Source of the DNA: Ignavibacteriales bacterium
Lineage (GTDB): Bacteria; Bacteroidota; Ignavibacteria; Ignavibacteriales; Melioribacteraceae
Direction of reading: 5' to 3'
Length of the DNA stretch: 64,000 bases
Assembly: GCA_020635285.1 (NCBI GenBank)
Contig: JACKAB010000007.1
Location: forward strand, 385,120-449,119
A program made the translations under genes and the position numbers. Of the stretch, positions 29,701-63,486 are shown one piece after another. Numbering within the stretch: position 1 is the first letter of the stretch; each line of letters begins with the position of its first letter. The notes under the pieces are model-generated. The model was not told the origin of the DNA, searched no databases, and saw only the letters and a list, made by a program, of their open reading frames with translations.

Positions 29701-30954
29701 ATTTGTTCCTTCAAGCTTAGCAATATCAGCTGAGAAATTTTGAGAAGCATCTAGAGCCATAATTTTTACTTTTGAATCTGAAAAAAGAATCTTTTCCATT
29801 TCAATAAGTATTTCGGTCATTATAATTCTTTCTTCGGGATCATCAAGTACATGGTCGTTGGGCTTGTAATCCATTTTGTTATTAATATATTTTTGGATGG
29901 TAGGCTTGCCAAATTTATTAATAACTGTATTGAAATCTAAATTTTTAATTAGTGGAATTGATTTATAAATCTGAGGCAACAAATTTTCATAGATTTTTGA
30001 GAAAGCCTTACTTCGAATAAAACTTTCCAAATCTCTGCACTCACCAATATTTTCATAAAATTCAATAACAGCATTGGGTGATTTATTAATTGCATTAATT
30101 GTAACTCCGCAATCTTTTGGGAATGCATTGTAAAGCGACATAATATTGCTGATAGTTAAACTATTCTTTTTTTGCTTCTTAATATTTTTTATAATATTAA
30201 AATCACTAAGAATGTTTTTAATGAATTCCTTATCGGTTTGGTAAGAAAAAATTTCATCTAAAATATCATCCGAACGTTTTTCGCTATTATCGCAATTGGT
30301 TTTTTCAGTTTTAAATTTATCCCAATATTTCAAAACTATTCTTAAGGCATTTTCAAATTCTTTTTTGAAAACGTCATAACTTTTATCAGAGCCATGAATA
30401 TAATCGCCAATAGAAAATCGTAAAAATCCGGATTGATAAGGAATAACAGCTATTCCGCGCTCAGCAGCTAACTTTTTTGTAAACTTTTCTAAATCTTGAT
30501 AGAAGAAAAAGTCTTTTAATTTTAGATTAAAAAGGAATGAGCCATCAGATGGAAGAACCTCAATATTATCATTATTATTTTCACTAAGTATTGAAGCTGC
30601 AACTTCTTTAGCAAGTTTTAATCTCTTTAAAGATTCAGCGCCAAAATTTTTATTAACTCTAAATTTGTTTATTTCGGAAACCAAATGTTTTTGATAATAA
30701 CTAAAAAACGGTTCGCTTTTATACTTAAAATCATCTGGCAAATCTAGAACATCAAGTTTATCAAGAGAAGTCAGTTCGTCCAATAAAAATAAATGGAGCG
30801 GACTTCCTTCAAACGGAGAAAATCTTTTTATTGCTTTACCTTGTTTTACTATGGCTTTCTTATCGTTAAAACTTTCTATCTCATCAATAATATATTTCTC
30901 AATTCTTGCTTTTATTTTATAACGAGATGCTTCTTTTGGAAGTTCCCGTTCCAT
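26716..30954 (-). CDS. 1412-aa multidomain protein: aminotransferase C-terminal subdomain, long helical region, PEPCK/HprK-like P-loop phosphotransferase domain, C-terminal region; probably the 3' part of a ~1940-aa gene
   Basis: Near the N-terminus, ERGIAVIPYQSGFLRFSIGDY matches the small-domain pattern of class I/II aminotransferases. Mid-protein, TDYFGNIKKPWLTMMNEKVKEMGGMPVHGSLFAV...VIQVDGDSGVGKSEMLAAMM...IKLIAGDMF...GIGTEQGDFSRV...DPEFIKYY...ADSNV...KIDIMLTASNFG runs parallel, segment for segment, to ATP-dependent PEP carboxykinase as recalled (YGGEMKK..F.MMN...G...MHCS...GLSGTGKTT...LIGDDEH...EGGCYAK...EPEIY...ENV...VIFLTADAFG). Confidence 0.6.
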   Translation of the reverse strand: MERELPKEASRYKIKARIEKYIIDEIESFNDKKAIVKQGKAIKRFSPFEGSPLHLFLLDELTSLDKLDVLDLPDDFKYKSEPFFSYYQKHLVSEINKFRVNKNFGAESLKRLKLAKEVAASILSENNNDNIEVLPSDGSFLFNLKLKDFFFYQDLEKFTKKLAAERGIAVIPYQSGFLRFSIGDYIHGSDKSYDVFKKEFENALRIVLKYWDKFKTEKTNCDNSEKRSDDILDEIFSYQTDKEFIKNILSDFNIIKNIKKQKKNSLTISNIMSLYNAFPKDCGVTINAINKSPNAVIEFYENIGECRDLESFIRSKAFSKIYENLLPQIYKSIPLIKNLDFNTVINKFGKPTIQKYINNKMDYKPNDHVLDDPEERIIMTEILIEMEKILFSDSKVKIMALDASQNFSADIAKLEGTNIILRKFVKELLLHFNLPFEQEIIEPSYEQLVNTSVEKFKEVVGFSVNEFNLKQYANIFLDKILKKLEPNLLSAKLDGIVHQSLMNNIFSKNLTTSNQLLNFYLLNKEDNFLNMLNKKVQLLSNKLSEKENGEVKLFTEEFIFEIIQTEIDGVFGEIFRYKNEKITQDKLHQTTRDIILLFVRIINKTRSTEYYDKYTHSLIKFVETSYIQQNSSINEMIQHGITLHRNYDFSSNALDSYDNGSLKWIEDVMKKCGVIASEQPVQSHTRIATDAKKREYAMHRIDREDDKTLERNYDDVNQYIKNLDTKPTAVFFKKRLAKFVDNMDANDYRCKIIKHGLVKVLYIIQKSYIKYLTDNHRLITADEVGLNDLKDFVPDVILFYGAPEKVISYPQIGYFNIKGPNGNIKTLVTPLKSKTDYFGNIKKPWLTMMNEKVKEMGGMPVHGSLFAVEEEDGSIFVIQVDGDSGVGKSEMLAAMMLKWLKKDLPGIRSIKLIAGDMFYVFPDSEGNLYGIGTEQGDFSRVTDFDPEFIKYYNSLFQSAADSNVEDLNSRSTISGLCDIRMPYKIDIMLTASNFGRQEAGITVFKNPENFLLYRHSHGERKEKATSSDNPNFQRTLLRYTNDKNVVEVMDKHGNYLDDVLDWEKDEFTGKFYLCSSYKLIDKIDIEDVVNKLFDKKTFKHSDGNNYSIDSVKFDIIKNRFIASCTKTNDETVSAKDIILDRAIFSNLFNSLASTPAGQPFIAEENQYEQMKHLVNILKGGVKEKGAGRHIQFGLLSTDLGREGKEITGPQAAAKDMVKMIQEVRISKPEINKNKNFIRNIVKEKYPNIFNGVKQNSEVNRYNFFLFQLEQMRKAEFVRIDDEKAKVDLSSIKGFCPIKKEHGFSPLLVTPNINVELSGFTETYEQLMDLPNNQDFADEFYKDCEKLYIAEGYSRETIENNMILQLLLMNGYLNIEDITRGKITEKVNRETLAAAKFAVVKRNNSTEKKSSKK

Positions 30955-43628: not shown

Positions 43629-46600
43629 ATGACTCTTAAACTTATAACTTATAGTTACATATTGCTACTTTGCTTAAACCCACTTTTTGCACAGAACAAG
43701 ATTTTAATAAACGAATTATTATCATCAAATATTAACGGATTAGTTGATAATGAATCTGGCGAATATTCTGATTGGATTGAACTTTATAATCCAAATGATT
43801 CATTGGTTGATATTTCTGGTTTTTACCTTTCTGATAAACATGAAGACCCATTTTTGTGGAGATTTCCTAATAATACTTTTATTGATTCAAACTCGTTTTT
43901 AATTGTTTGGGCTGATGATAAAAATTATGAACTGCATACTAACTTTAAACTTAGTAATGATGGCGAAAAATTATTTCTATATTCTAAAGATTCAGTTTTA
44001 GTTGACTCAATAACTTATGGTAAACAACGCGATGATGTTTCTGTTGGCAGAGATACAAGTAATTTCGAATGGTTATTTTTTGATGAACCAACACCTGGGA
44101 AAATGAATTTGACAAAAAGGGTAAGACCAATAACAAACTTTCTGATAAACCAATATTTTCAATTGAAAGCGGATTTTATTCATCAAGTGTAATTCTAGAA
44201 ATCACCTCCGAAGATAGTAGTGAAATTTATTATACCTTAGATGGCTCGACTCCTTTCAAATCATCAGCACAATTATATACAGAACCAATTAATATTGATT
44301 CAACTTCAATAGTATCCGCAATTTCTATTGAACAAAACAAACTTTCCAGCAACGTAGTTTCAAAATCATTTTTTATTGATGTGGATACAGAACTGCCCGT
44401 AATTTCTATAACAACCGACCCGAAAAATCTTTGGGATGATAATATCGGAATTTATACAAAGGGAACTAATGGCATAAGTTTTTGGAGTGTAAAGGCTAAT
44501 TATTGGCAAGAATGGGAACGACCGGCAAAAGTTGAATTTTTTGAAGATGACAAAACAATAGCATTTGAATTAAATGCCGGAATATCTATAAATGGAGCTA
44601 GAAGAAATATGCTCCAAAAGTCATTAAGAATTTTTGCTAGAGATAAATACGGAGCCCCTTCAATTAATTATAAAATATTTCCGGATAAAGAAATAAGAAA
44701 TTTCACTTCACTTGTTTTAAGGAATGGCGGCTACCCCGAATTTATTTCAACATTGTTTAGAGATGGATTTATCCAAACATTAATTTCAAATGAAATGGAT
44801 ATTGATTATCAAGCTTACAGACCGAGCATTCTTTATTTAAATGGCAAGTATTGGGGAATTTATAATATTCGCGAAAAACAAAATGAAGAATACTTAAAAG
44901 AAAATAATGGAGTGGATCCAGATAATTTAGATATTCTTGAAAACAATATGGTAGTTGTTGAAGGTGATAGTAACCATTACCAAAATATGATTGATTTTAT
45001 TTCAGCAAATGATTTATCTATTCAAGAAAATTATGATTCAGTGAAAAATTTTATGGAGATTGATAATTTTATTAATTATCAAATTGCACAATTATATATA
45101 GCAAATGCTGATTGGCCTGGAAATAATATTAAATTTTGGCGACCCAAAACTAACGATGGGAAATGGAGATGGCTAATATTTGATCTTGATGGAGGTTTTG
45201 GATTATGGCACAATTATGATTTTAATTCAATAGAATTTGCAACTGAAGAAAACAGTTCAGAATGGAATAACGCTCCTTGGTCAACATTCCTTTTTAGAAA
45301 TTTATTAAAGAATCAAGAATTTGCAGATGAATTTGTTCAAAGGTTTGCCGCATATTTAAGCTATAGTTTTAACAGAGAAGATGTAATAGAGTTAATGACT
45401 TCATTCCAAAATAGAATAGAAAAAGAGATTCCCAATCACATAAATAGATGGGCTCCTAACTGTTCAATTACTAATCCGGAATCTAAAGATGGCTGCATGT
45501 TTGAAGATATTTCAACATGGTACGAAAATATAAATATAGTTAAAGAATTTGCAGTCAAAAGACCAAATTATGTAATGGAACATTTGATGAATTACTTTTC
45601 CATTTCTGATACAATAAAAGTTTTAGTTTCTTCAAATAGTACTGAAGGTGGAAATGTTTTTGTTAATGAAGTTAATTCCAAGTTTGGTGTTGAGGCTAAA
45701 CTTTTTAGCGAGAAAAAAATAACATTTCTTGCTAAACCAAAAGCCGGATATAGATTCGTTGGATGGAAGGGCGATATTACTGCAAAAATTCCAACTTTAG
45801 AAATATTACGACAAGATGATTTTTCTATTGAAGCAGTTTTTCAACCGATAAATAATTCAGTAGTTCCTTCAATTATAAATAGTGATTTGGTTCTAACTGC
45901 AGGTAATAGTCCGTATTATACAGAGGATGATATTTATATTTATGAAGATGCAACTCTTACAATTGAACCTGGAGTTGAATTAAATTTATCAGCAGAAAAA
46001 AGTATTTATGTTTATGGTAATATAGAAATGTTTGGTATCGAAGAAGATCCTATCTTAATAAAATCCTCAGTAACTGGCATTAATTGGGGGTCAATTAATT
46101 TTGTTAATGCAAAGAAAAAATCAAAAATATTCCATACAAAAATAAGTGGTACTAGTAATGGTAAAGATAAAATTGATCAAATCGGGGGGATATCCAGTTT
46201 CAATTCTGATTTAGAATTGAACTATGTTGAAATGGATAATGTACAATTCCCAATTTTTATACAGTATGGAAATTTCGTAATGAGAAACAGTAAAATTCAC
46301 ACGGAAGTCACTTCCGATTTTGTGAATGTTAAATATGGCAAAGCTGTAATTGAAAATTGCGAGTTTATTGGAAACCTTGCTCCGGATACTGATGCTATTG
46401 ATTATGATGATGTTAATGCTGGGATAATAAGAAGAAATAAAATTCATAGTTTTTATGGTGATAATAGTGATGCTATTGATATTGGAGAAGGAGCTAAAGA
46501 TATTTTAATAGAAGAAAACTTAATCTATAATTGTTCAGATAAAGGTGTCTCTATTGGCCAAGAATCAACCGCAATTATAAAAGGTAACGTAATTGCTAAT

Positions 46601-47773
46601 TGTAATCTGGGAGTTGGAATTAAAGATGACAAATCATATGGTTTTATTGACCATAATACGTTTTACAATAATAATATTGCAGTTTCTTGTTTTGAAAAAA
46701 ATATTGGAAGAGGCGGGGGTAAAGCAGATATAACCAATTCAATTTTATCAAACTCAACAGAATCAGATATTTTTGCCGATCAATTTTCTGAAATTAATAT
46801 TTCATATTCTCTATCCGATAAAAACAACATTGAGGGAGTAGGAAATTTATTTGGAGAACCAAATTTCTTAAATCCAGATTCATTAGATTTTAGAATTAGC
46901 GAAAGCTCTCTTGCTTTTAATAGTGGCGACCCAAATTATAAACTAGATGCTGATGGCAGCAGAACCAATATGGGTGCTTCTTTTTATAATTTTGTAAACT
47001 TTAATAAAATTGTAATTACAGAAATAAATTATCACTCAAGTGTTAATTTTAATACAAAAGATTGGATTGAATTTTATAATCCAAATAAAAACTCGGTTGA
47101 TCTTTCCGGTTGGATTTTTAAAGATAGCGAAGATGCACATATCTATACCTTTCCTTCAAATGCAATTTTAGGAGCGGAAAAATATTTAATTCTATCTGAA
47201 GATATCACAGAGTTTAAAACATTTTATCCAACCACAAAAAATGTGATTGGTAATTTTGATTTTGGTTTGAATAACTCTGGAGAGACCGTAAGGTTATTTG
47301 ATAATTATGGAAACATAATTGATTCATTAACATATGATGATAAAGATCCTTGGCCCATTGATGCTGATGGGAATGGTTATACATTGCAGTTAATAAATCA
47401 CGAACTTGATAATTCGCTTGCAGAAAATTGGGCTTCCCCAATAATTTATGGTACACCTGGAAATCTTAATATTGTTTCTGATATTGAAAATGATGAAGTA
47501 AAAATACCTAAAGAATATTCATTATCACAAAATTATCCAAATCCGTTTAATCCAAGCACATCAATTAAATTTGAAATTCCTAAGAACGCAAATGTGACAT
47601 TGAAAGTATTTGATGTACTGGGAAGAGAATTAAGAACTATTGTGGATAAAAATATGAAAGCCGGTTCTTATATTTTCCAGTTCAATGCAATTTATCTTTC
47701 AAGTGGTATTTATTTTTATCAGTTAATTGCAAATGATTTTCATAAAACTTATAAAATGATTTTATTAAAGTAA
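43629..47773 (+). CDS. secreted multidomain CotH-kinase-family protein: LTD, chitobiase-C-like domain, CotH, beta-helix, LTD, T9SS C-terminal domain; one frameshift near 44110
   Basis: LTD: ILINELLSSN...GEYSDWIELYNPNDSLVDISGFYLSD. CotH-like core: LPVISITTDPKNLWD...AKVEFFED...SLRIFARDKYG...LVLRNGG...FRDGFIQ...YRPSILYLNGKYWGIYNIREK. Parallel beta-helix repeats follow (NCSDKGVSIG, NCNLGVGI). A second LTD reads IVITEINYHS...KDWIEFYNPNKNSVDLSGW. The protein ends NYPNPFNPSTSIKFEIP...VTLKVFDVLGRE...GIYFYQL...KMILLK. ORFs 43629..44192 and 44381..47773 join through the frame encoding SDKPIFSIESGFYSSSVILEITSED. Confidence 0.8.
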
Positions 47774-47884
47774 AATCATTTTATAAAAAATAGTGTCAAA
47801 CGTAATCAAATCTCTATTATTTATTTAAAGTATATCTTTATCTGCTTTTTATTATTTTTAAATTTTAAAATTTTACAATAACGT

Positions 47885-48946
47885 ATGCTAAAAAATCGAA
47901 ATATAATCTTTGCAATTATCATTTTAATATTGATAATCTTTCTAATTCTTCCAATTGAATATCCTAGAACAATAAAATCCAAAGGGAAGCTTCTCCCTTA
48001 TAAAACTTGGACTTTAGCAAAAGGAACAGATGGCAGACTTATAACATCTCTAAATGATAACTTGACGGGCATTAATGATGGTTTTACAGTGACTCAATTT
48101 GAGCGGGGCGATGCAGTTCAGTTTAAATTAAAAACCGAAGTAATTTCTAAAGACTTTATAAGTAAAGGCGATACAATTGGTTATGTAATTTCAAACATTA
48201 TTGAAAAAGATATTGAAAAATTAAAAGGTGAACTTGAAACTGCGAAAGCCTCGCTCAACATTCAAACAAGCAGCGAAAAAGAATCTGTAATTGATGCTGA
48301 AAAAAGTAAATTAGTTTTTGCAGAAAAAGAATTGGAAGAACAGACAAAAGTGTTTGATAGAAAAAAACTATTGTTTGAACGTCAGTTAATATCGCAGCAA
48401 GAATATGAGGCAGATGAGGCTAAGTTTGAGCTAGCTAAAATAAATGTTAACATTGCAAAAGAAAGATTACGAACAGTACAAAGCGGAGCAAAAAAAGAAG
48501 AAATAAATTTTGCTGCATCACAAATAAGTGCTTTAGAGAATGAAATTAGAATTCTGCAAAAAAGATATGAAAGTAATAATATAGTTACGCCAATTGGAGG
48601 AAATGTTAATAAAACTTTTTCTTCCGATACCTTATTGGTGATTAATGATACAAGTAAAAATGTAATTTTAATTCCAGTTAAATGGAGTGATATTAACAAA
48701 ATACAGGTCAATCAAAGCGTAATTATTTCTTCTGCCGAAGTTGATGAAGTGATAAATGGTAAAATTATATCAATTGGAAATAATGTAAAAACTGCTAATA
48801 ACTTTCAATATGTTTTAGTAACTGTTATCTCCGAGGACAGGATGAAGCAGCTAAAATCTGGGTTGTACGTTGATTGCAAAATAGAATGCGGCTCTGAAAC
48901 AGCTCTTGATATTCTATCCGATTTTTTAAAACCAATCTTCAAATAG
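47885..48946 (+). CDS. HlyD-family membrane-fusion (periplasmic adaptor)-like protein, no adjacent pump
   Basis: An N-terminal TM anchor, a lipoyl-like segment (KGDTIGYV), a long alpha-hairpin coiled coil (~aa 110-230), IVTPIGGNV, and a C-terminal beta-domain. Confidence 0.55.
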   Translation: MLKNRNIIFAIIILILIIFLILPIEYPRTIKSKGKLLPYKTWTLAKGTDGRLITSLNDNLTGINDGFTVTQFERGDAVQFKLKTEVISKDFISKGDTIGYVISNIIEKDIEKLKGELETAKASLNIQTSSEKESVIDAEKSKLVFAEKELEEQTKVFDRKKLLFERQLISQQEYEADEAKFELAKINVNIAKERLRTVQSGAKKEEINFAASQISALENEIRILQKRYESNNIVTPIGGNVNKTFSSDTLLVINDTSKNVILIPVKWSDINKIQVNQSVIISSAEVDEVINGKIISIGNNVKTANNFQYVLVTVISEDRMKQLKSGLYVDCKIECGSETALDILSDFLKPIFK

Positions 48947-48952
48947 AATATC

Positions 48953-49744
48953 ATGAGATTAGAATATAAATTTTTAGTAAATAATTATGATTTAGAACGG
49001 TTAAGAAAAAAACTATTACCTTTTGTTGAGTTAGATCAATTTGTAAAAGAAAGTAACGGAAATGAGTATACAGTAAGAAGCATATATTTTGATTCATCCA
49101 ATTTTGATTATTATCATGAAAAAATAGATGGAATTAAAATTAGAAAAAAATTAAGAATAAGAAGTTACGATACTAAAGCAGATAACAATTTGGTTTTTTT
49201 AGAAATTAAAAATAAGTATGATAATTTTATTGGTAAAAATAGGGCACCTATTTTATTTCATAATCTAAAAAATTTATTAAATACAAATGAAATTGAAACT
49301 TACGCCTTAACGAATAACGGGTATTCAAATTCTTTGCAAGATGGCGAAAAATTTATGCACCATATTTATAAAAGCGGAATGAAACCAACAATTTTAATTG
49401 TATATGAGCGCGAAGCTTTTTTCTCAAAGTTTGATAATAGTTTAAGAATCACTTTTGATAAAAATATTAGATTTTACGATAATCCTAATATTGATAGTCT
49501 TTATAGAGATTCTGATTTAGAAATCGCAACTCCAAACCATTTTGTATTAGAGCTTAAATTTAATAACGGTTATCCAAAGTGGCTGCAGGATATCGTTCAA
49601 GAGTTTGGATTAATTAGAAGATCGGTTTCTAAGTATACAATTTGTATTGATTCATCAAAAAGAATTAATCCGATGCGAAAGAATTTAAGTACATCAAATT
49701 ACTCATTATTCTATGACCAGAATAATGAAGAAGGAATATTTTAA
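48953..49744 (+). CDS. VTC-domain protein (CYTH-like triphosphate-tunnel, polyphosphate-polymerase-type domain)
   Basis: RLEYKFLV...YTVRSIYFDSSNFDYYHEKIDGIKIRKKLRIRSY...VFLEIKNKYDNFIGKNR fits the bacterial VTC-domain pattern (E.KY.v...Y.v.SlYfD......y.....g...R.KlRiR.Y....vflEiK.K). It begins 6 nt after the upstream gene. Confidence 0.75.
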   Translation: MRLEYKFLVNNYDLERLRKKLLPFVELDQFVKESNGNEYTVRSIYFDSSNFDYYHEKIDGIKIRKKLRIRSYDTKADNNLVFLEIKNKYDNFIGKNRAPILFHNLKNLLNTNEIETYALTNNGYSNSLQDGEKFMHHIYKSGMKPTILIVYEREAFFSKFDNSLRITFDKNIRFYDNPNIDSLYRDSDLEIATPNHFVLELKFNNGYPKWLQDIVQEFGLIRRSVSKYTICIDSSKRINPMRKNLSTSNYSLFYDQNNEEGIF

Positions 49745-49746
49745 AT

Positions 49747-50421
49747 ATGCTGCAAGATATTAATAATATTTTTAATGTTGGAATTACACCCCAAGAAATG
49801 TTTCTAAATTTATTAGTCGGTTTAGTTGCGGGAATAATCATTTCAATTTTTTATCGTAAATCATATAATGGTCCGGGTTACCAGGCATCATTTGTAAACT
49901 CGTTGATTTTATTGGTTATAATCACATCAATTGTAATAATGGTGATTGGAAATAATCTTGCGCGTGCATTTGGTTTAGTCGGTGCCATGTCAATTATTAG
50001 ATTTAGAACCGCTGTTAAAGAAACTCAAGATATAATGTATATTTTCTTTGCCCTTGCAATTGGTATGGCTGTTGGAGTTGGACAGCACGGACTAGCAATT
50101 TTTAGTTCTTTCTTTATTGGAATAATTACTTATGTGCTTTCTAAATCAAAATTTTCCACACCAATTAAAAGTGACCTTTTGCTTCAGTTTACATATAATG
50201 CAAATGGAAATGGAGTTGCAGATTACACAAAATTGATTAATGATTATTGCAAAAATAGTAAGTTAATAAATGCCAAAGCTATTGGTTCAGAAGAAATGTT
50301 AGAACTCTCCTATTATGTTGGATTTAGGAATAAAGAAAAAACCACAGAATTTGTTCAAAAATTAAGAAAAATTGAAGGTGTGCTTAACGTAAACCTTTTT
50401 TATGATGAAGAATATTTTTAA
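49747..50421 (+). CDS. DUF4956-family membrane protein
   Basis: Several TM helices are present. The signature GLVGAMSIIRFRTAVKETQDIMYIFFALAIGMAVGVG is typical of DUF4956. It begins 2 nt after the VTC gene. Confidence 0.7.
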   Translation: MLQDINNIFNVGITPQEMFLNLLVGLVAGIIISIFYRKSYNGPGYQASFVNSLILLVIITSIVIMVIGNNLARAFGLVGAMSIIRFRTAVKETQDIMYIFFALAIGMAVGVGQHGLAIFSSFFIGIITYVLSKSKFSTPIKSDLLLQFTYNANGNGVADYTKLINDYCKNSKLINAKAIGSEEMLELSYYVGFRNKEKTTEFVQKLRKIEGVLNVNLFYDEEYF

Positions 50422-50488: not shown

Positions 50489-52803
50489 ATGAAAACAAAA
50501 TTTCTCATGCCTCTATTTTTATTTCTATTTTTTTCAATGATTTCACTTTCTCAAAATGATGAAAGCTGGAAAGTTTATGATGATTCTGAAGTCGCAGAAA
50601 TTAGAATCACTATGAATCCAGGTGATTTGCAATATCTGTACGACTATCCTGAGAAAGAAAATGATTCAATGATGGTTTCAAGTATTAATTTCAAAAATGC
50701 ATTAATTGATGAAACTATAGACTCAGTTGGAATAAGAATAAGAGGGAATACATCAAGGGAATCTGCAAAAAAATCTTTTAAGCTTTCTTTTAATACATTC
50801 ATAAAAGGCAGAAAATTTTATTCACTTGAAAAAATGAATTTAAATGGAGAACATAATGATCCTTCAATTATTAGGAGCAAATTATGTTGGGATTTTTTTA
50901 ACAATATAGGAATAGTTTCTTCCCGAGCATCTCACGCAGCAGTTTATATAAATGGGGATTATTACGGTCTTTACATTTCAGTTGAACATATTGATGAAAA
51001 CTTCATTAAAAAAAACTTCAAAGATGATTCTGGAAATTTATGGAAATGTTTATATGGAGCTAATTTAACTCCTCTAAATAACAATAATATTTCTGCGTAC
51101 ACATTAGAAACCAATACTGGAGCTAATGATTTTTCTGAGTTAGATACGCTGACAAAAATAATCAATAATACAACACTTAGTAATTTTGAAAATTCAATTG
51201 ATAAATATTTTAATGTAATGGAATATTTAAAAATACAGGCAGTTGATATTATTACCGGAAGTTGGGACGATTATTCAGTACTGAGTAATAACTTTTATTT
51301 ATATCATGATCCTTCAACCGATAGATTTCATTGGGTCCCATATGATTATGATAATACTTTTGGTATTGATTGGCTTGGATTTGATTGGGCAAATGAAAAT
51401 CCATACACTTTCGGGAAATTGCTTAACCAGCCACGCCCTTTAATAAATAGGCTCTTGGAAATTCCAAGGTATAAAAATATGCTTTCTCATTTTATGGAGT
51501 TTTATCTTGAAACATATATGCAAGCTGAAAAATTTAATGGACATGTGGATTCAATAAAGACAATAATTGAAGCATTTGCGTTGGTAGATGATTATAAATC
51601 ATATGATTGGGGTTTTACTAACGAAGATTTTCAAAATTCCTTTGATGCTGAAAATTTTACAATAGATCCGCATGTAAAGTATTCAATTAAAGAATACAAT
51701 TTGCTGCGAAAAAATTCTTTGAATTCACAAATAGATTACGTCGACTCGGAACCAATTATATATAATATTAGTTTATCAAACACAAAACCAGCTTATGATG
51801 AATCCATAAAAGTGAATGCTTCGGTCTTTTCAGTAAACCCAATTCAATTGGCATATGCAGAGTTAGAATATAAAGATGGGAGCAAAAGCAATATTCCTTT
51901 AACTTATACGCCCGTAAATAATACTAATAAAGTTGAATTGAATGATAATTGGGAAACGGAAATTCCTGTACTAGGAAAAAACCAAAATGTTAAAATAAGA
52001 ATATATGTTGAAGATAATCTTGGGACAAATGCATTTTATCCAGCCGATGGAATAAGTATTAAAACTGCAGGAGAAATAACAAAAGAAGTAGTATTTAGTG
52101 AGTTGATGAGTTCCAATGTTTCAACAATTCAAGATAATGTTGGGGAATATGATGATTGGCTGGAAATTTATAATCCGCAAGATACAACGGTAAATTTAAG
52201 TGGTAAATTTTTAACAGATAAAATAGATAAACTAATAAAATGGCAAATCCCAGCAAATGTAAAAATAGAACCAAAAGAACAAATCTTAATATGGTGCGAT
52301 GAGGATCAAGACCAATAAGGTCCACATATTAATTTTAAGTTAAGCTCAAACGGAGAATTTATTGCAATTGTAAATAATGATGGGACAACCATTTTGATTC
52401 AATAACAATTCCAGCATTAGGTGAAAATAATTTTTATTCAAAATTTGATAATGATATTTGGGAAATTACAAATAACCCAACACCTGGTGCCCCGAACATA
52501 ATTACGGATATTAACGAAATCAAGTTTAGATTTGAAAATAATTTATCGGCATTTCCAAATCCTTTAACCCAAAAAACAAATATTGAATTTTCAACGAATG
52601 TTATTACTGATATTAATCTAAGGATATTTAACATAATGGGGAAACAGTTTGGACTACAAAATTGAAAAAGCATCCCTAGGTAAGCATTTAATAGAATGGG
52701 ATAGTCTCAATAATTTTGGAAACAAATTACCAAGTGGCATTTATTTTTTTTACAAGCTATTGGCTCTAACTTTAATATAATTATTAAGTTAGTCTTATTG
52801 AAA
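50489..52803 (+). pseudogene. secreted CotH-family protein with C-terminal LTD and T9SS domain (copy A); in-frame stop at 52316 plus frameshifts in the 3' part, end approximate
   Basis: ORF 50489..52318 has a signal peptide and CotH-like core (IRIRGNTSRESAKKSFKLSFN...MNLNGEHNDPSIIRSKL...AVYINGDYYGLYISVEHIDENF) plus an LTD (EYDDWLEIYNPQDTTVNLSG). Copy A reads caa-taa-ggt where copy B has caa-gca-ggt. The protein continues as GPHINFKLSS...FPNPL...IEF...LRIFNIMGKQ...SGIYFF...KLVLLK with further frame changes. Confidence 0.75.
50552..52385 (+). repeat. tandem duplication, unit A (~1.83 kb, high identity to 52965..54800)
   Basis: Line-by-line comparison, for example caaaatgatgaaagctggaaagtttatgatgattctgaagtcgcagaaattagaatcactatgaat at both 50552 and 52965. 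Identity persists to ...ggtccacatattaattttaagttaagctcaaa. The offset is ~2413 nt. Confidence 0.9.
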
Positions 52804-52904
52804 GAAGTTATTTTAAAATATTTTCTTCTGAAAAAAAGTTTACAAATTTTCATTCAATCTTATTTCTGTTTATTTTATAAATATTTTAATATGAAGAGAA
52901 TTGT

Positions 52905-55229
52905 ATGAAAAATTGTAAATATATAATAATATTATTTTTTATCCTCGTTGTATCAAACCAAGCACAAAATGATGAAAGCTGGAAAGTTTATGATGATTCT
53001 GAAGTCGCAGAAATTAGAATCACTATGAATCAGGTGATTTGCAATATCTGTACGACTATCCTGAGAAAGAAAATGATTCAATGATGGGTTTCAAGTATTA
53101 ATTTCAAAAATGCATTAATTGATTGAAACTATAGACTCAGTTGGAATAAGAATAAGAGGGAATACATCAAGGGAATCTGCAAAAAAATCTTTTAAACTTT
53201 CTTTTAATACCTTCATAAAGGTCGTAAATTTTATTCACTTGAAAAATTGAATTTTAAATGGAGAACATAATGATCCTTCAATTATTAGGAGCAAATTATG
53301 TTGGGATTTTTTTAACAAATATAGGAATAGTTTCTTCCCGAGCATCTCACGCAGCAGTTTATATAAATGGGGATTATTACGGTCTTTACATTTCAGTTGA
53401 ACATATTGATGAAAACTTCATTAAAAAAACTTCAAAGATGATTCTGGAAATTTATGGAAATGTTTATATGGCGCTAATTTAACTCCTCTAAATAACAATA
53501 ATATTTCTGCGTACACATTAGAAACCAATACTGGAGCTAATGATTTTTCTGAGTTAGATACGCTGACAAAAATAATCAATAATACAACACTTAGTAATTT
53601 TGAAAATTCAATTGATAAATATTTTAATGTGATGGAATATTTAAAAATACAGGCAGTTGATATTATTACCGGAAGTTGGGACGATTATTCAGTACTGAGT
53701 AATAACTTTTATCTATATCATGATCCTTCAACCGATACGTTTCATTGGATCCCATATGATTATGACAATACATTTGGTATTGATTGGCTTGGATTTGATT
53801 GGGCAAATGAAAATCCATACACTTTTCGGAAATTGCTTAACCAGCCACGCCCCTTTAATAAATAGGCTCTTGGAAATTCCAAGGTATAAAAATATGCTTT
53901 TTCATTTTATGGAGTTTTATCTTGAAACATATATGCAAGCTGAAAAATTTAATGGGCATGTGGATTCAATAAAAACAATAATTGAACCATTTGCTTTGGT
54001 AGATGATTATAAATCATATGATTGGGGTTTTACTAATGAAGATTTTCAAAATTCCTTTGATGCTGAAAATTTTACAATAGATCCGCATGTAAAGTATTCA
54101 ATTAAAGAATACAATTTGCTGAGAAAAAATTCTTTGAATTCACAAATAGATTACGTCGACTCGGAACCAATTATATATAATATTAGTTTATCAAACACAA
54201 AACCAACTTATGATGAATCCATAAAAGTGAATGCTTCGGTCTTTTCAGTAAACCCAATTCAATTAGCATATGCAGAGTTAGAATATAAAGATGGGAGCAA
54301 AAGCAATGTTCCTTTAACTTATACGCCCGTAAATAATACTAATAAAGTTGAATTGAATGATAATTGGGAAACTCAACTTCCTGCACTAGGAAAAAACCAA
54401 AATGTTAAAATAAGAATATATGTTGAAGATAATATTGGGACAAATGCATTTTATCCTAACGATGGAATAAGTATTAAAACAGCAGGAGAAATAACAAAAA
54501 GAAGTAGTATTTAGTGAGTTGATGAGTTCCAATGTTTCAACAATTCAAGATAATGCTGGGGAATATGATGATTGGCTGGAAATTTATAATCCGCAAGATA
54601 CAACGGTAAATTTAAGTGGTAAATATTTAACAGATAAAATAGATAATTTAATAAAATGGCAATTCCCAGCAAATGTAAAAATAGAACCAAAGGAACAAAT
54701 TTTAATATGGTGCGATGAGGATCAAGACCAAGCAGGTCCACATATTAATTTTAAGTTAAGCTCAAAAGGAGAGTTTATTGCAATTGTAAATAATGATGGA
54801 ATTACAATAGTTGATTCAGTAACAATACCCGCGTTGAATGATAATGAATCTTTTGCGAGAGAAAATAATATCGGCGATTGGTTTCTCACAACTTCTAGCA
54901 CACCAGGTGCAAGCAACATTGTAACTAGCATTTCAGATCAATTAATTCCCAAATACTCTTATAAGCTGGAAGCATTCCCAAATCCTTTTAATCCTTCTAC
55001 CAATATTGAATATGAAATTGCCTCACCAATGAATGTAGAGTTAAAAATTTATGATATTTTAGGAAGGGAAGTTTGGAGTACAAGTAAGATTAAAAAAGAA
55101 GCTGGAATACATCAATTGCAATGGAATGGAAGTGATTACGCAAGTAATGAATTATCAAGTGGAATATATTTGCTTAATATTAATAGTGAAACTTATAATA
55201 AAACTATAAAGCTTATGTTGCTTCGGTAA
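52905..55229 (+). pseudogene. secreted CotH-family protein with LTD and T9SS domain (copy B); at least 8 single-base indels relative to copy A
   Basis: ATG at 52905 gives MKNCKYIIILFFILVVSNQAQNDESWKVYDD... Indels versus copy A include aatcaggtg versus aatccaggtg, gatgggtttc versus gatggtttc, attgattgaaac versus attgatgaaac, and ccacgcccctttaat versus ccacgccctttaat. The intact 3' ORF 54519..55229 has the LTD and FPNPFNPSTNIEYEI...ELKIYDILGRE...GIYLL...KLMLLR. Confidence 0.8.
52965..54800 (+). repeat. tandem duplication, unit B
   Basis: See unit A. It differs by scattered substitutions and at least 8 mostly homopolymer-associated indels. Confidence 0.9.
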
Positions 55230-55293
55230 ATAATCATAGTAATTTTCGATAATTATTTGTAATGTTTACAAAACTATTTAGTTGGAGATTGCA

Positions 55294-56139
55294 ATGTCTA
55301 AAAAAAAATCTGACACAAAAAAATCAGATAAGAATTCTAAAAGTGAACTAGAAGTTGATAAGAAAAAATTAGAAAAAAAATTTTATGAAAAGGAATTAAG
55401 TAAACTTCAAATTGAACTTGTAAAATTACAAGAATGGATTAAAGAGAAAAGACTAAAAGTAGTTGTAATATTTGAAGGAAGAGATGCTGCCGGCAAGGGT
55501 GGAGTAATAAAAAGAATTAACCAAAGTTTAAATCCTAGAATTTGCAGAGTAGTTGCATTAGGTACACCAACTGAAAGAGAAAAATCACAGTGGTATTTTC
55601 AAAGATATGTTACGCATCTACCAGCCGGTGGTGAAATGGTTCTGTTTGATAGAAGTTGGTATAATAGAGCTGGCGTTGAAAAAGTAATGGGCTTCTGTAC
55701 TGATGAGGAGCATAAAGAGTTTTTAAGATCTTGCCCCGAATTTGAACGTATGCTTGTCCGATCCGGCATAAAGGTAATTAAGTATTATTTTTCAGTTAGC
55801 GATGAAGAACAAGAAAAACGTTTTCAAGCGAGAATACATGATAGAACAAAGCGCTGGAAATTAAGCCCAATGGATTTAGAATCACGCTCAAAATGGGTTG
55901 AGTATTCAAAAGCCAAAGATGAGATGTTTGCATATACAGATATTAAACAAGCTCCATGGTATGTTGTAAATGCTGATGATAAAAAGAAAGCCAGATTAAA
56001 TTGCATGAGTCATTTATTAAGTCTTATTAATTATGAAGACTTGACACCCGAGCCAATTAAATTACCTCCGAGACAAAAAGATAAAGGTTACATTCGTCCG
56101 CCAATTACTGATCAAACCTTTGTCCCGGACAAATATTAA
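55294..56139 (+). CDS. ppk2: polyphosphate kinase 2 (PPK2 family)
   Basis: VVIFEGRDAAGKGGVIKRI (Walker A), RVVALGTPTEREKSQWYFQRYVTHLPAGGEMVLFDRSWYNRAGVE and ERMLVRSGIKVIKYYFSVS are present. The ATG at 55294 (MSKKKSD) is preferred over the TTG at 55282. Confidence 0.9.
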   Translation: MSKKKSDTKKSDKNSKSELEVDKKKLEKKFYEKELSKLQIELVKLQEWIKEKRLKVVVIFEGRDAAGKGGVIKRINQSLNPRICRVVALGTPTEREKSQWYFQRYVTHLPAGGEMVLFDRSWYNRAGVEKVMGFCTDEEHKEFLRSCPEFERMLVRSGIKVIKYYFSVSDEEQEKRFQARIHDRTKRWKLSPMDLESRSKWVEYSKAKDEMFAYTDIKQAPWYVVNADDKKKARLNCMSHLLSLINYEDLTPEPIKLPPRQKDKGYIRPPITDQTFVPDKY

Positions 56140-56141
56140 TT

Positions 56142-56903
56142 TTATATTTTTATTGATAATCCAATTTTAGTATATGTATCCAAATCTTTTACGGTATCTG
56201 GAGGTTTACTGTCGTATCTTAATCCAAGACTAACTGATATGGAAACTTTCTCATTCAAACCAACACTAAGATGATTTTCACTTAACATTCTTATATCTTT
56301 AAAATTATCAAATCTTGGCTGCGCATAAATGATAATAGAAAGAGTTGAATTATCAGTTAAAGAATTTGTATAACTTAAATAATTACTCCACCTATGATGA
56401 TCCGTTAATGATGGATGAAAATTATCTGGACTTAAATCTAATTTTTCATGCTCAAACATATAAGCCGTTCCAAATGTTAAATTACTATTCTCAGTGCTTA
56501 ATAAACCAGATCTAACTCCCACTCCAATTAGGCTGCGGAATAATATCAATTGTTTTTTGTTATAATTTATTTGGGCAAAAAATTCCGGAGATATAAAAGT
56601 TTCAGTTTCCTTAATCAATCTAAAATGTAATAAAGCATTGTTTGAATATTCTTTTCCATTGTTCCATCCATAATCACCAAGTGCAATTAAAAATGAATTA
56701 AAACTATCTTTGTGATAATTTATTCTTCCGTCAACTCCAAATTCTTGAATATCGGTATTACCGGTTTTTGCCGAAACATAAAAAGAAAGATTTCCAAACA
56801 ACCCATCCGATTGATTTACTTTATTGTACTTTTCGATGTTTACTTGTGCGTGTATTGTAATAGAAAATATACTGAGTAATAAAAGAAATTTTAAAGTGTT
56901 CAT
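56142..56903 (-). CDS. outer-membrane beta-barrel protein, DUF481 (YdiY)-like
   Basis: 253 aa with a signal peptide, beta-strand periodicity and AKTGNTD near the N-terminus. Size and pattern resemble DUF481; this is from memory only. Confidence 0.4.
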   Translation of the reverse strand: MNTLKFLLLLSIFSITIHAQVNIEKYNKVNQSDGLFGNLSFYVSAKTGNTDIQEFGVDGRINYHKDSFNSFLIALGDYGWNNGKEYSNNALLHFRLIKETETFISPEFFAQINYNKKQLILFRSLIGVGVRSGLLSTENSNLTFGTAYMFEHEKLDLSPDNFHPSLTDHHRWSNYLSYTNSLTDNSTLSIIIYAQPRFDNFKDIRMLSENHLSVGLNEKVSISVSLGLRYDSKPPDTVKDLDTYTKIGLSIKI

Positions 56904-59669: not shown

Positions 59670-61133
59670 TTAGAATAATTTTATAATGTTACCAATATCA
59701 GAGTTATCAATATAATCTCCGTAAACGGGATCTGTTCCTTTAATATTTTCTATGAATAATTGACTACCCTTACCTTTTGCATAAAAAGGAACAAGCGAAT
59801 TAGTATGATGAGAACTGAACCATTCCACCTCAGGCATTTGACCTTTACCTTTTCCAATAAGGGGCTTCCATTTTTTATAATTATTCTGCGTATTCTGTCT
59901 GTTAGAATTTGGTCCAAGAAGATAGCCGGTTTCATGATCTGCCGTAACTATAATTAAAGTTTCATCCCAGCTGCTATTTTCTTCTACCCAATTACACGCA
60001 GCTTCTACAGCTAAATTAAAATCGATTTGTTCTTCAATTGTTCGGCTTAAATTATTATCATGTGCGGCCCAATCTACAGCACCTCCTTCAGACATCAGAA
60101 AAAAACCTTTTGGATTTTCATCAAGGACATTTATTGCAGCTAATGTCATTTCTTTTAATGTTGGAATTGTTTGAATGAAGGGGACTGAAAATGGAGTCCA
60201 TTTTTCATTGGTTGTATCTCTTTCTACTTGAGTGGCTTGACCACTTTTAAAAACTCCTATTAATCTTTTGGGAGTTTCCCCGTTCATAAATTCTTGAAAG
60301 GATTCTCTATCTTGGATTAATGTCCATTCATCAAATACACCATCACCGTCTGCATCATTTCCGGCAGTTCCTTTACTTAACATATCCCAAGTATCTTTTC
60401 CTCCAACATATCTGTATTTTGATTCTGGAAGTAATTTGCCTTCTTCATCGATTATAGGTTTACCACCATTATTCATGTCCCATATTTCTTTAGATCCTAT
60501 ATATCGCTCGCTAAATTCACTTACTAGTTTTCCAGCAGCAGTATAAAATGGATGTCCACCACCCATAATTACATCAACTTTACTTTTTAAAATCATCTCC
60601 TCAGCAATCTCTTTATAGTTTTGACGACTCTTATTATGTGCTACAAATGCAGCCGGAGTGGCATTGCTAAATGGCACCGTTGAAATTACACCTGTTGATT
60701 TTCCTTGTTTTTCAAACTTATCAATAATTGTTTCCATAGGATTATTTAAAGTATCGACTGATAAAACACCCTTATCAGTTTTTTTGCCTGTAGCAATTGC
60801 AGATCCTGAAGCCGCAGAATCAGTTGGTCTTTTAATCACCCAACTGAAATCTGTCCATGCAGAATCCGGATCATATTTCAAACCTTTTGTGTAATATGTT
60901 GACATTGCCAGTCTTACAGGAAATTTCTCATATATTTGTTCACCTGTTTTACCAAATTGGTAGTAACTTGCTATATCAACATGATTAAAACCGCATCCAT
61001 CACTGATAAATAAAATTACATTTTTGGGCTTTTGTTGTTTTGCTATTTGTTCTAATTCCTTTGAGGTGCAGCAGTTTTGTAAAACTACTGTGAGAAGTGC
61101 GAGTTTAATAACGATACTAAATTTCTTTTTCAA
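59670..61133 (-). CDS. alkaline phosphatase (PhoA family), secreted
   Basis: ILFISDGCGFNH (metal-binding Asp), TDSAASGSAIATGKKT (active-site Ser motif D-S-A-A-S), ADHETG and HT..LVPFYAKG are present. Confidence 0.85.
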   Translation of the reverse strand: MKKKFSIVIKLALLTVVLQNCCTSKELEQIAKQQKPKNVILFISDGCGFNHVDIASYYQFGKTGEQIYEKFPVRLAMSTYYTKGLKYDPDSAWTDFSWVIKRPTDSAASGSAIATGKKTDKGVLSVDTLNNPMETIIDKFEKQGKSTGVISTVPFSNATPAAFVAHNKSRQNYKEIAEEMILKSKVDVIMGGGHPFYTAAGKLVSEFSERYIGSKEIWDMNNGGKPIIDEEGKLLPESKYRYVGGKDTWDMLSKGTAGNDADGDGVFDEWTLIQDRESFQEFMNGETPKRLIGVFKSGQATQVERDTTNEKWTPFSVPFIQTIPTLKEMTLAAINVLDENPKGFFLMSEGGAVDWAAHDNNLSRTIEEQIDFNLAVEAACNWVEENSSWDETLIIVTADHETGYLLGPNSNRQNTQNNYKKWKPLIGKGKGQMPEVEWFSSHHTNSLVPFYAKGKGSQLFIENIKGTDPVYGDYIDNSDIGNIIKLF

Positions 61134-61458: not shown

Positions 61459-63486
61459 TTATTTTACAAGAACCATTTTTACAGTTTTATTAAATGTACC
61501 AGCAACCAATTTATAAAAATAAACTCCGCTAGGTTTAGTGCTTGAATCCCAAATAACTTCATAAGTCCTGGTTTTTGATTTTGGCTTACTAGTGTTTCAA
61601 CTTCGCCGCCAATAATATCGTAGACTTTAATGTTACATTCACATTGTCATCCCGAACCTGCCTGCCGGCAGGCATGGCTTGTTTCGGGATCTCATTATTT
61701 AAATGCTGAAATGAATTCAGCATGACTGATGGTGATGGTATTGAATATTTTATTGTTGTGCTTGGATTAAAGGGATTTGGATAATTTTGATGTAAAATAA
61801 AATCATCTGCAAGTGTTTCTTCATTATTAATATTTGTTGTTAAATTAAATGTAATGGGTACTTTAATTTCTTTTGAAAAAGTTGATTCTTTATTTTCCAA
61901 ATCATAAGAAGTTATTTTATAATAAGCGTAGCCGTAAGTATTCGCATTTGTTGCCATGCACTCAATTGAATCTGTATAAGAGCTGATTGAAACTGTATCA
62001 TATAATTTATAGTCTTGGTGATCAAATTTTTTATAGACTTTATAGTATTCAAAATCAGGCTCTAAGTTTTGTGACCAACTAAATTTTACTTGGCTACCTT
62101 TTATAAGTTCAATATTTCTGGGAGTTGATGGAGATGCATTCTCAGGATATTTTTGGTAAAAATCTACAACATAATGATCATCATTACATTCAACGATTTC
62201 AAGCCCGCAGTTACTGGTAGGCTTCGTATTTGGAACCCAATAATATCCGCATCTGGATTGTCTGCAATCCGACCAAGGATTTATTACTCTTATATTATTT
62301 TCACCGGGGAACATGAAGTGATTACAGTTGGAACAAAGGTTTCCGCATGAGTGCATCAGCATTACATAATTCCCGGTTAGTTTTCTCCAGATAAGAATCC
62401 CGTTATTTAATGAAACATTTTTTATGTGCGAATTATAATCCGGAATTAAATGATCTCCCAATTTCATTTTGGAATTGAAATTCCTATATTCAACTAAGAA
62501 AAAATCAAAAGAACAATTGTCCTGCAGTTTATAAATATCTGAATCGGTTAGGTTATATTTAATTTCTTTTTTAATCGATTCATTTATAATTTTCATAGAG
62601 TTCCAACCTAATACCCAACGGAAGTAAGGATTAATTGGGGCTGGGCATGATCCTTCAAGTCTAGGACCATTAAAACAACCCTTAGACATCAAACAAAAAT
62701 ATTCGTTATCGCAGCCATGTAAAAGATCTTTAAATCCTAAAAGATGGCAAAATTCATGTGCGTGAATACCTATATGTGAAAAATGTGAGACAGGATATGA
62801 AGAAGAATCATCTCGCTCTTCCAAATAAGGATAGCATGATGCAAATCTTTCGCCCATAATATACTCGTGTTCATCAGTGAATGCTTCCGGATTTAATGAA
62901 TTACTTTTTCCGCTGCGATATATATGTCCAGCATAAATTATAACAAGAAAAGTTTCATCATCTTTTGGATATCTAATCCTAATGATTTTGCTTTTTGTTT
63001 TGCTTCTGCTCTAAATTTTTTCCTCTCTCTGCATTGTAATATTCTTTTGTATTATCCAACATTATCCAATCCGGCACATTATCTTTATTTAAATCTTCAT
63101 TAAGAATATATCCGGTAAGCTCCAAATTTCCATCTGACATTATGCTGTAGTAATCTCTTAAGCTTCCAAATACTTCCTTTCCATCAGGTGAATACATGTT
63201 TGGTGAACAATATTTATTGACTGAAAAAACATATTATTAAAATCATTATAAGTATAAGCTGGTAAAGTAAGTGTAGATGGATATTGCGGATTTCTGTGTC
63301 TCACATCTTGGAATTCTACTAAGAGTACTTTTAAGGTAATGGTTTCATTTAAGATTTGTTTTATTTCGTTTGGATTTTTCTGATTTTTAACACCATTATC
63401 TTTGCTGTAGATATTATAATTTACAACAAGTGAGCAAAGAAAATGATGTTTAAAATTATTTTTAATTTATTATTTTGTTTCCTCAT
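61459..63486 (-). pseudogene. M6 (immune-inhibitor-A-like) metalloprotease with T9SS C-terminal domain; at least 4 frameshifts plus a repeat-element insertion
   Basis: ATG at 63486 gives MRKQNNKLKIILNIIFFAHLL. Fragments: FGSLRDYYSIMSDGNLELTG (62979..63197), AEAKQKAKSLGLDI in another frame, HAHEFCHLLGF (HExxH, 61589..62857), and NYPNPFNPSTTIKYSIPSPS. After the inserted element come NVTLKVYDIIGGEVETLVSQNQKPG.YEVIWDSSTKPSGVYFYKLVAGTFNKTVKMVLVK and a stop at 61459, which needs two more frame changes. Confidence 0.75.
61646..61727. repeat. bipartite hairpin repeat, copy 5, inserted inside the T9SS-domain coding region of the M6 protease gene
   Basis: The sequence is gtcatcccgaacctgcctgccggcaggcatggcttgtttcgggatc-tcattatttaa-atgctgaaatgaattcagcatgac. 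It is translated within the ORF as VMLNSFQHLNNEIPKQAMPAGRQVRDD, between ...YSIPSPS and NVTLK... Confidence 0.65.

Follow-up and report, generated by a model that had tools for sequence, protein, structure and literature searches.

What might a periplasmic adaptor do when its gene is packed against a gene for a VTC-domain protein, with no pump nearby? The question is raised by three genes in a 64,000-nt stretch of the genome of an Ignavibacteriales bacterium (assembly GCA_020635285.1, contig JACKAB010000007.1, positions 385,120 to 449,119), the whole of which was analysed and is referred to here as the window. All three lie on the forward strand. The first (47885-48946) encodes a membrane fusion protein (MFP)-like periplasmic adaptor of 353 aa, the second (48953-49744) a stand-alone VTC-domain protein of 263 aa and the third (49747-50421) a DUF4956 membrane protein of 224 aa. 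A first-pass annotation, made from the sequence alone, had described this triad as a packed, co-directional set and had proposed that it makes polyphosphate (polyP), or another phospho-polymer, and moves it across a diderm envelope. The open reading frame (ORF) coordinates proved to be exact, with intergenic gaps of 6 nt and then 2 nt, and the signature strings that had been singled out (EYKFLV, SIYFDS, KLRIRSY and FLEIKNK for VTC, SIIRFRTAVKETQDIMYIFFALAIGMAVG for DUF4956) were all found in the translations. Profile hidden Markov model (HMM) searches placed each protein above the cut-off of its Pfam family: VTC (PF09359) at 160.7 bits (cut-off 23), DUF4956 (PF16316) at 58.5 bits (cut-off 30.6) and, for the adaptor, HlyD_3 at 27.6 bits, just above its cut-off of 22.2.

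The arrangement was then sought in other genomes. A DUF4956-seeded scan of species-representative genomes yielded 80 loci, the best-scoring of at least 497, in which the DUF4956 proteins are 46-87% identical to the query; 76 of these loci have room for the whole triad. The order MFP-VTC-DUF4956 is kept in 71 of the 76. Moreover, in MFP-seeded metagenome loci with room, VTC comes directly after the adaptor gene in every case (21/21) and is followed by DUF4956 in every case (19/19). The same order was present in all seven contexts sampled for adaptor homologues, at identities down to 31%. Carriers are labelled Ignavibacteriales, Melioribacteraceae, Calditrichota, Neomarinimicrobiota, Zixiibacteriota, Latescibacterota, KSB1, Eisenbacteria, WOR-3, Rhodothermales and other Bacteroidota. 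With the same order in 71 of 76 genomes and in all metagenome loci with room, the arrangement is far beyond chance, and these counts rule out both coincidence and an annotation artefact. The triad is inherited as one block, and we regard it as highly probable that their products act together.

The first-pass remark that no ABC, RND or MFS pump lies nearby was borne out. When 34 of the 35 window ORFs of 200 aa or more (all but ORF 23734-24360) were scanned with Pfam, no such transporter was returned, and clustering of the neighbouring ORFs of the 80 loci gave no ABC, RND or MFS family that recurs near the triad; ABC half-transporters occur in 6 of the 80 loci and MacB-like proteins in 4. For the window ORFs scanned and the 80 loci, an ordinary efflux adaptor with a nearby pump is thereby ruled out.

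The adaptor is absent from five DUF4956-seeded loci, namely one labelled Anaerolineales, one of Stahlbacteria, two of WOR-3 and, in a Melioribacter genome, a second copy. More distant DUF4956 branches were reached by a representative search and gene-context look-up, the matches listed by the broad homologue search being of the close clade only. Three such branches, at 27-29% identity (L091, L092 and L094), hold VTC-DUF4956 together with CotH and have no adaptor. The Anaerolineales locus, the lone one with a Chloroflexi label, and the Gram-positive cassettes, which also lack the MFP, were counted as evidence for envelope dependence. Since distant lineages keep VTC-DUF4956(-CotH) only, the adaptor is an addition made in one large, mostly Fibrobacteres-Chlorobi-Bacteroidetes (FCB)-type diderm clade, and the ancient core is VTC-DUF4956, usually with a secreted CotH protein. 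In one further locus (L093:1-8696) a Wza (Poly_export)/Wzc (GNVR)/Bac_transf/Wzy_C cluster for polysaccharide export ends with a distant DUF4956 gene, whose product shares 28% identity with that of the window. The two genes immediately before it are unannotated, and no VTC match is recorded. Besides pel, this is the second link of DUF4956 to exopolysaccharide loci.

Predicted properties of the three proteins

The VTC protein has neither a signal peptide nor a transmembrane (TM) segment, and its first tunnel strand begins at residue 2; it is therefore expected to be cytoplasmic. The Pfam match covers profile positions 2-233 of 235, and a search of the PDB with a profile of seven diverse relatives matched Vtc4, Vtc2 and Vtc3 only. 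Nine residues of Vtc4 hold Mn-triphosphate and are required for polyP in vivo (10.1101/2023.01.27.525886). In the native numbering of chain 8i6v_E, Vtc4 K200, R264, R266, K281, Y359 and R361 correspond to K6, R68, R70, K86, Y151 and R153 of the window protein, whilst E426, S457 and K458 correspond to E200, S226 and K227 by a sub-threshold local match that is consistent with the full-length Pfam match. All nine are invariant in the seven relatives. K458 is of particular interest, being the sole one of these residues that is altered in inactive Vtc2 (Ile) and Vtc3 (Leu) (10.1101/2023.01.27.525886). As all nine residues are kept, K227 included, the protein appears to bear the polymerase signature, with tunnel and catalytic residues alike retained. 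A non-catalytic, Vtc2/3-like identity is ruled out by the presence and invariance of this lysine, and we predict that the protein is a cytoplasmic polyP polymerase.

The first gene had been taken to encode an MFP on the look of its sequence, and structure prediction agrees. Its AlphaFold2 model (predicted local distance difference test, pLDDT, 83.9) was compared with the PDB by Foldseek, which returned MacA as the best match (5.5e-15), followed by EmrA, AcrA and MexA, all with a probability of 1.00; among the top 50 of 70 matches (E<=0.001) all are MFPs, ZneB included. Scores against the named NCBIfam MFP subfamilies (CzcB, DevB, RND_mfp, EmrA, MdtN) are all far under cut-off, and the protein can therefore be assigned to the HlyD-MFP superfamily only, with no named subfamily. 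A database protein that is 100% identical across 96% of the query bears an NCBI Ignavibacteriales label, in keeping with a host metagenome-assembled genome of that order. There are approximately 83 close homologues of roughly 350 aa each, and an HMM of this group gives its members 168-500 bits and ordinary MFPs from the same loci less than 50 bits. Judged by sequence, the adaptor founds a distinct MFP subfamily, apparently dedicated to VTC-DUF4956.

The model runs from a TM helix (residues 3-21) through a beta region (25-103), two long helices (104-165 and 171-230) and a second beta region (232-339) to a short C-terminal helix. The TM helix is the predicted N-terminal membrane anchor (47891-47947), with K3 and R5 at its start, and a hydrophobic 17-aa window is present at the N-terminus of 63 of 66 family members. 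The two long helices form an alpha-helical hairpin (residues 104-230; 48194-48574) with arms of 62 and 60 aa and a tip of 5 aa, as assigned by DSSP on the model. This hairpin is exactly 127 aa long in 64 of 66 species representatives, at identity down to ~30%, as expected from a spacer of fixed length. Exactly on its predicted turn, between helix segments 131-165 and 171-200, falls an RLS motif, R159-x3-L163-x6-S170 (RKKLLFERQLIS, 48359-48394), a candidate docking site for a TolC-family protein. The arginine is conserved in 40/40 homologues, the leucine in 37/40 and the serine in 35/40; the respective counts for the 66 species representatives are 65, 59 and 56. In MacA, AcrA and MexA the pattern RxxxLxxxxxxS (RLT in HlyD) is the interface with the TolC tip, and its mutation abolishes TolC binding (PMC3391258). 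The tip motif and the fixed hairpin length point to an outer-membrane partner for this putative adaptor.

The DUF4956 protein belongs to a large family (4,511 representative clusters at E<=1e-10). In its AlphaFold2 model (pLDDT 75) a beta-alpha-beta-beta-alpha-beta domain comes after five TM helices, and Foldseek matched this C-terminal part to ACT domains only (PGDH, Rel, IlvN). Comparison with the PDB by single sequence and by profile gave no usable match. The protein resembles the MgtC family weakly (Pfam MgtC 18.7 bits, cut-off 31.4; NCBIfam MgtC/SapB, PRK09977, E 4.9e-4 with a score far under cut-off). The label 'YhiD' is attached to its homologues by JGI, and a streptococcal homologue has been described as MgtC-TM plus ACT (mBio 2025, PMC12345266). 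These three strands agree in suggesting an MgtC-like plan. The distribution of charge fits an N-out/C-in topology, which would place the ACT domain in the cytoplasm. The most conserved stretch of the family, NLARAFGLVGAMSIIRFRTAVK, puts R73 within TM3 and R85, R87 and K91 where that helix ends on the cytoplasmic side, all four being invariant.

These three proteins could also be assembled into an exporter of some other cargo, in which the VTC domain would hydrolyse NTP or tripolyphosphate, like many CYTH/TTM enzymes, and so power DUF4956, with an MFP-TolC duct exporting a cation, a small molecule or a phosphorylated product. Triphosphate tunnel metalloenzymes (TTM) take varied triphosphate substrates (PMC9582702). 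The MFP fold and the RLS motif indicate export and leave the cargo unspecified, and DUF4956 is MgtC/SapB-like, all of which such an exporter would accommodate. However, the match to the VTC family is specific, the polymerase-type lysine (K227, equivalent to K458) is kept, unlike in the non-catalytic Vtc paralogues, and we know of no transporter powered by a TTM enzyme. We therefore consider that an exporter of this kind is quite unlikely.

Export as a reading of the triad

The reading that we prefer, and that we hold at slightly short of an even chance, is that the triad carries out synthase-coupled export of polyP, by way of an MFP duct and an outer-membrane channel whose gene lies elsewhere; what we infer is the identity of the polymer, the function of DUF4956 as a conduit and the outer-membrane partner. 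The three proteins would constitute one envelope machine, laid out like a tripartite efflux pump with a polymer synthase replacing the transporter. At the membrane face the VTC enzyme would polymerise the gamma-phosphate of NTP into polyP. An oligomer of DUF4956 would carry the growing chain across the inner membrane, for which the basic cluster R73/R85/R87/K91 at TM3 is a plausible entry site, and the polymerase may be docked or regulated through the ACT domain. The chain would then pass across the periplasm inside a ring of adaptors to the TolC-family channel, the driving force being chain elongation itself, as in the yeast VTC complex. PolyP would thus reach the surface or the exterior, where the T9SS (type IX secretion system)-secreted CotH kinase-fold proteins, as well as the phosphoesterases, that are often encoded beside the triad may bind it or make use of it, although use by CotH is speculation.

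Each computational ground on which the first-pass annotation would have given up its proposal turned out in favour of that proposal. Several points weigh against the present account. The window ORFs scanned contain no TolC/OEP protein by Pfam, and no OMF (outer-membrane factor) family recurs in the flanks of the 80 loci. OMF genes are often unlinked from the systems that they serve, E. coli tolC being an example. The structural models are of monomers, and the alignment that supplies three of the nine Vtc4 residues, K227 among them, is the sub-threshold one. The part of the first-pass proposal that made DUF4956 a channel found no support: the fold search returned no solved structure like its TM domain, and the proteins closest to it, MgtC/SapB/YhiD, are known to act as regulators and not as channels (mBio 2025). 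Fusions of DUF4956 with VTC or MFP were absent from the best 150 family representatives. Furthermore, diderm-looking loci hold VTC-DUF4956 without an MFP (L091, L092, which has YhdP nearby, and several of WOR-3/Stahlbacteria), and the core function would therefore be independent of the adaptor. Lastly, in Streptococcus intermedius the Pel and aggregation defects are reported for DUF4956 and CotH mutants, the VTC mutant not being named (mBio 2025, PMC12345266), which tells against every polyP-centred reading.

Some of the same observations would fit delivery of polyP to the periplasm or envelope only, as a cation buffer, a phosphate reserve or a matrix under the outer membrane, with the MFP as a chamber or scaffold. 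No OMF gene is linked to the triad, some diderm-looking loci do without the MFP, and MFP-fold proteins act without an outer membrane in monoderms, as does Spr0693, itself one of the Foldseek matches. The conserved RLS tip and the 127-residue hairpin are, however, features of OMF docking and of spanning the periplasm, and the commonest co-travelling neighbours of the triad are T9SS-secreted, extracellular proteins. Delivery that stops short of the outer membrane is accordingly judged unlikely.

If synthase-coupled export to the outside is the correct account, the triad would represent a new class of inner-membrane partner for periplasmic adaptors and would provide the first mechanistic role for DUF4956, a family of thousands. 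It is a concrete three-gene candidate for a bacterial VTC-type polymerase together with its route across a diderm envelope, the first we found for polyP outside the cell, and is small enough for heterologous expression. Secreted polyP could also matter to phosphorus cycling, as the lineages that carry the triad, among them Ignavibacteria, Calditrichota, Marinimicrobia and Zixibacteria, are plentiful in sediments and in the oceans.

Flanking genes

CotH, LTD and T9SS-tail genes flank the triad on both sides, and PPK2 and then a DUF481 gene lie further downstream. Upstream (43629-47773, forward strand) is a gene for a secreted LTD-CotH-beta-helix-LTD-T9SS-tail protein, recognised by Pfam, which is divided into ORFs 43629-44192 and 44381-47773. 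It is broken by a frameshift near 44117-44138, where a tblastn alignment with an intact 1181-aa homologue (from L008) changes frame. The first ORF (LTD) has a signal peptide, whilst the second (CotH) has a GTG start and no signal peptide. Downstream are two forward-strand copies of a further CotH gene, which are tandem duplicates (50489-55229) and ~97% identical over their shared part. Copy 1 (50489-52318; Pfam CotH 213.9 bits), a CotH-LTD protein with a signal peptide, stops before the T9SS tail, with TAA where copy 2 has GCA, as shown by alignment of the two. Copy 2 (52905-55229) reads on into the tail, giving CotH-LTD-T9SS-tail by Pfam, and is split by several single-base homopolymer indels. 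With the frameshift upstream added to the defects of the two copies, all three CotH genes of the window are interrupted. The damage to the copies is due to pseudogenisation or else to consensus errors where a repeat was collapsed; beside them, the triad and the PPK2 and trp genes are intact.

A perfect AT-rich 12-bp inverted repeat (AAAATGATTTTA ... TAAAATCATTTT) was noticed at 47754-47785, overlapping the upstream CotH gene at its stop codon, with an A/T-rich tract 3' of the repeat. Promoter and terminator scans were uninformative in this AT-rich DNA, with counts not above those of shuffles, and the repeat is possibly a terminator overlooked by a scan based on G+C. Such a terminator suggests that the triad has its own promoter in 47774-47884.

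Across the 80 loci, the sole further family to recur widely is a secreted CotH/LTD cluster, present in 54 and possibly including LTD-only and T9SS-tail proteins; CotH itself is found in 36. The first-pass association of CotH with the triad therefore holds in that it is frequent, and on both flanks here, but it is not obligatory. Other T9SS-secreted flanking proteins (L050:3630-7178; L002:4650-7757; L056:5872-9092) comprise purple-acid-phosphatase/metallophosphoesterase proteins, CotH fused to Pur_ac_phosph_N, an arylsulfotransferase-like propeller and an SBBP propeller. An SdiA-regulated/phytase-like beta-propeller of ~260 aa (PF06977 91.9 bits; PF13449) adjoins the triad in 11 of the 80 loci, lying directly downstream of DUF4956 in L015, L018 (L018:10675-11472, minus strand) and nine others. 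Since frequent neighbours are T9SS-secreted CotH, purple-acid-phosphatase-like and phytase-like proteins, it is suggested that the product of the triad is used outside the cell.

The polyP-dependent nucleotide kinase PPK2 is encoded at 55282-56139 on the forward strand (Pfam 360 bits; TIGR03707 384 bits, above cut-off). Its adjacency, which the first-pass annotation had stressed, is real in the window but confined to close relatives, being seen in 4 of the 80 loci and in L001, and PPK2 is ruled out as a general, integral part of the system. The gene nonetheless bears on a third alternative, in which the triad would make cytoplasmic polyP as an alternative to PPK1 and feed the adjacent PPK2. 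DUF4956 would then be an anchor or regulator of MgtC type, using its ACT domain to sense a metabolite, and the MFP would serve signalling or stabilisation instead of transport. In the window and in close relatives PPK2 is found directly downstream, ACT is a ligand-sensing fold and MgtC is a regulator (mBio 2025); moreover, the authors of the S. intermedius study proposed that polyP may remain cytoplasmic. However, this scheme leaves unexplained an adaptor with a TolC motif that is co-inherited in 71/76 and 21/21 loci, the PPK2 linkage is rare, and the recurrent partners are secreted proteins. We find a purely cytoplasmic role very doubtful.

Beyond PPK2, on the reverse strand, is a gene for a DUF481 protein with a signal-peptide-like N-terminus (56142-56903; Pfam 73.2 bits). 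We presume DUF481 to be an outer-membrane beta-barrel family; as an outer-membrane partner of the triad it is unsupported, having been seen again in L012 only.

A bolder extension of the export reading can be drawn from the CotH neighbours. The triad would then be a synthase-dependent polyP secretion system, the first MFP-TolC-type duct driven by a VTC polymerase and a DUF4956 conduit, and the exported polyP would act as phosphoryl donor or substrate for co-inherited secreted CotH kinase-fold enzymes. We think this improbable as it stands. If true, it would solve how extracellular kinases run without ATP and would explain the bacteria-wide linkage of CotH, VTC and DUF4956.

Other phosphate-related genes were observed less than 10 kb from the triad or pair: an alkaline phosphatase in the window (59670-61133, reverse strand); PhoU and a Na/Pi cotransporter near the triad at L001:785-2614; and an H+-pyrophosphatase near the VTC-DUF4956 pair of an Anaerolineales locus (L052:5842-7926). 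Elsewhere in the window, a giant 2322-aa ORF (7258-14226, reverse strand) combines a cNMP-binding domain at its N-terminus with a STAS domain at its C-terminus and also gives long coiled-coil-like matches, and its region has the lowest GC of the window (0.26) and a strong negative AT skew. Two adjacent multihaem cytochromes (17157-22123; 502 and 1159 aa), with matches to cytochrome c7/c3 and MtrC/MtrF domain II/IV, are possibly extracellular electron-transfer equipment and are followed by a 527-aa ORF without a Pfam match. Pfam gave no match at E<=1e-4 for either of two long reverse-strand ORFs, 26716-30954 (1412 aa) and 61589-62857 (422 aa).

Comparison with known systems

Part of this gene set is already known. 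A Gram-positive pel cassette, cotH-PPP(VTC)-DUF4956(-DUF4832), was described by Whitfield et al. 2019/2020 and is represented by SIR_1592-1594 of S. intermedius (mBio 2025, PMC12345266). The first-pass view that the VTC and DUF4956 pairing has no defined function was therefore nearly right: there is no biochemistry, but the cassette had been published and deletion phenotypes exist for CotH and DUF4956. Window and cassette share the VTC and DUF4956 families and an adjacent secreted CotH. They differ in that there is no contiguous pelDEADAFG operon or DUF4832 here (pel-type glycosyltransferase, PelG and DUF4832 had no match among the scanned window ORFs), in that the window CotH proteins carry LTD domains and T9SS tails, unlike those of the cassette, and in that an MFP gene precedes VTC-DUF4956, neither of the pel-cassette papers mentioning an MFP. 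The synteny of cotH, VTC and DUF4956 was stated to be absent outside pel loci (mBio 2025, PMC12345266). This is contradicted by FCB-type, KSB1 and other loci, which join the three families with no pel genes called in their flanks. Were the export account true, it would recast this unexplained cassette, which affects Pel-dependent aggregation in streptococci.

Our literature search returned no paper joining an MFP to VTC, no biochemistry of a bacterial VTC enzyme and no export route or exporter for bacterial polyP. Bacterial polyP synthesis is credited to PPK1/PPK2 in the searchable literature, and a 2026 paper still places VTC4 under Eukarya. What is new here is a system of tripartite type with a candidate new inner-membrane engine, and a predicted VTC polymerase with a new membrane partner.

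Against the eukaryotic VTC complex (Vtc4/Vtc3/Vtc1), the window enzyme has the same tunnel domain (Pfam VTC), the same triphosphate and Mn ligands and the Vtc4-specific lysine. The proposed logic would also be the same, a cytoplasmic polymerase feeding its chain straight into a membrane conduit. However, the 263-aa window enzyme consists of the VTC domain only and lacks both SPX and the fused DUF202-type TM domain; the C-terminal TM domain of Vtc4, which it is without, forms a channel with Vtc1/2/3. DUF4956, with five TM helices and ACT, matched none of the VTC membrane subunits that the searched PDB set contains. The target membrane differs too, being the vacuole in eukaryotes and, for the triad, a diderm envelope with a periplasmic adaptor. 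DUF4956 resembles MgtC/SapB/YhiD in its predicted layout, in which a cytoplasmic ACT domain follows five TM helices, and in weak profile matches, but its scores are under the family cut-off and it has its own invariant motif and an obligatory pairing with VTC.

Lastly, the adaptor was set beside those of tripartite efflux and type I secretion systems. It shares with them the TM anchor, the lipoyl and beta-barrel domains, the long inserted antiparallel hairpin and the RxxxLxxxxxxS tip. In those systems the partner is an ABC, RND, MFS or PET transporter, whereas in the triad it would be DUF4956 with the VTC enzyme. The closest architectural analogue is EmrA of EmrAB-TolC, which has a TM anchor and no membrane-proximal domain, as the window adaptor appears to have, and whose own partner has almost no periplasmic mass, a situation to which the inner-membrane partner of the window adaptor may be likened.

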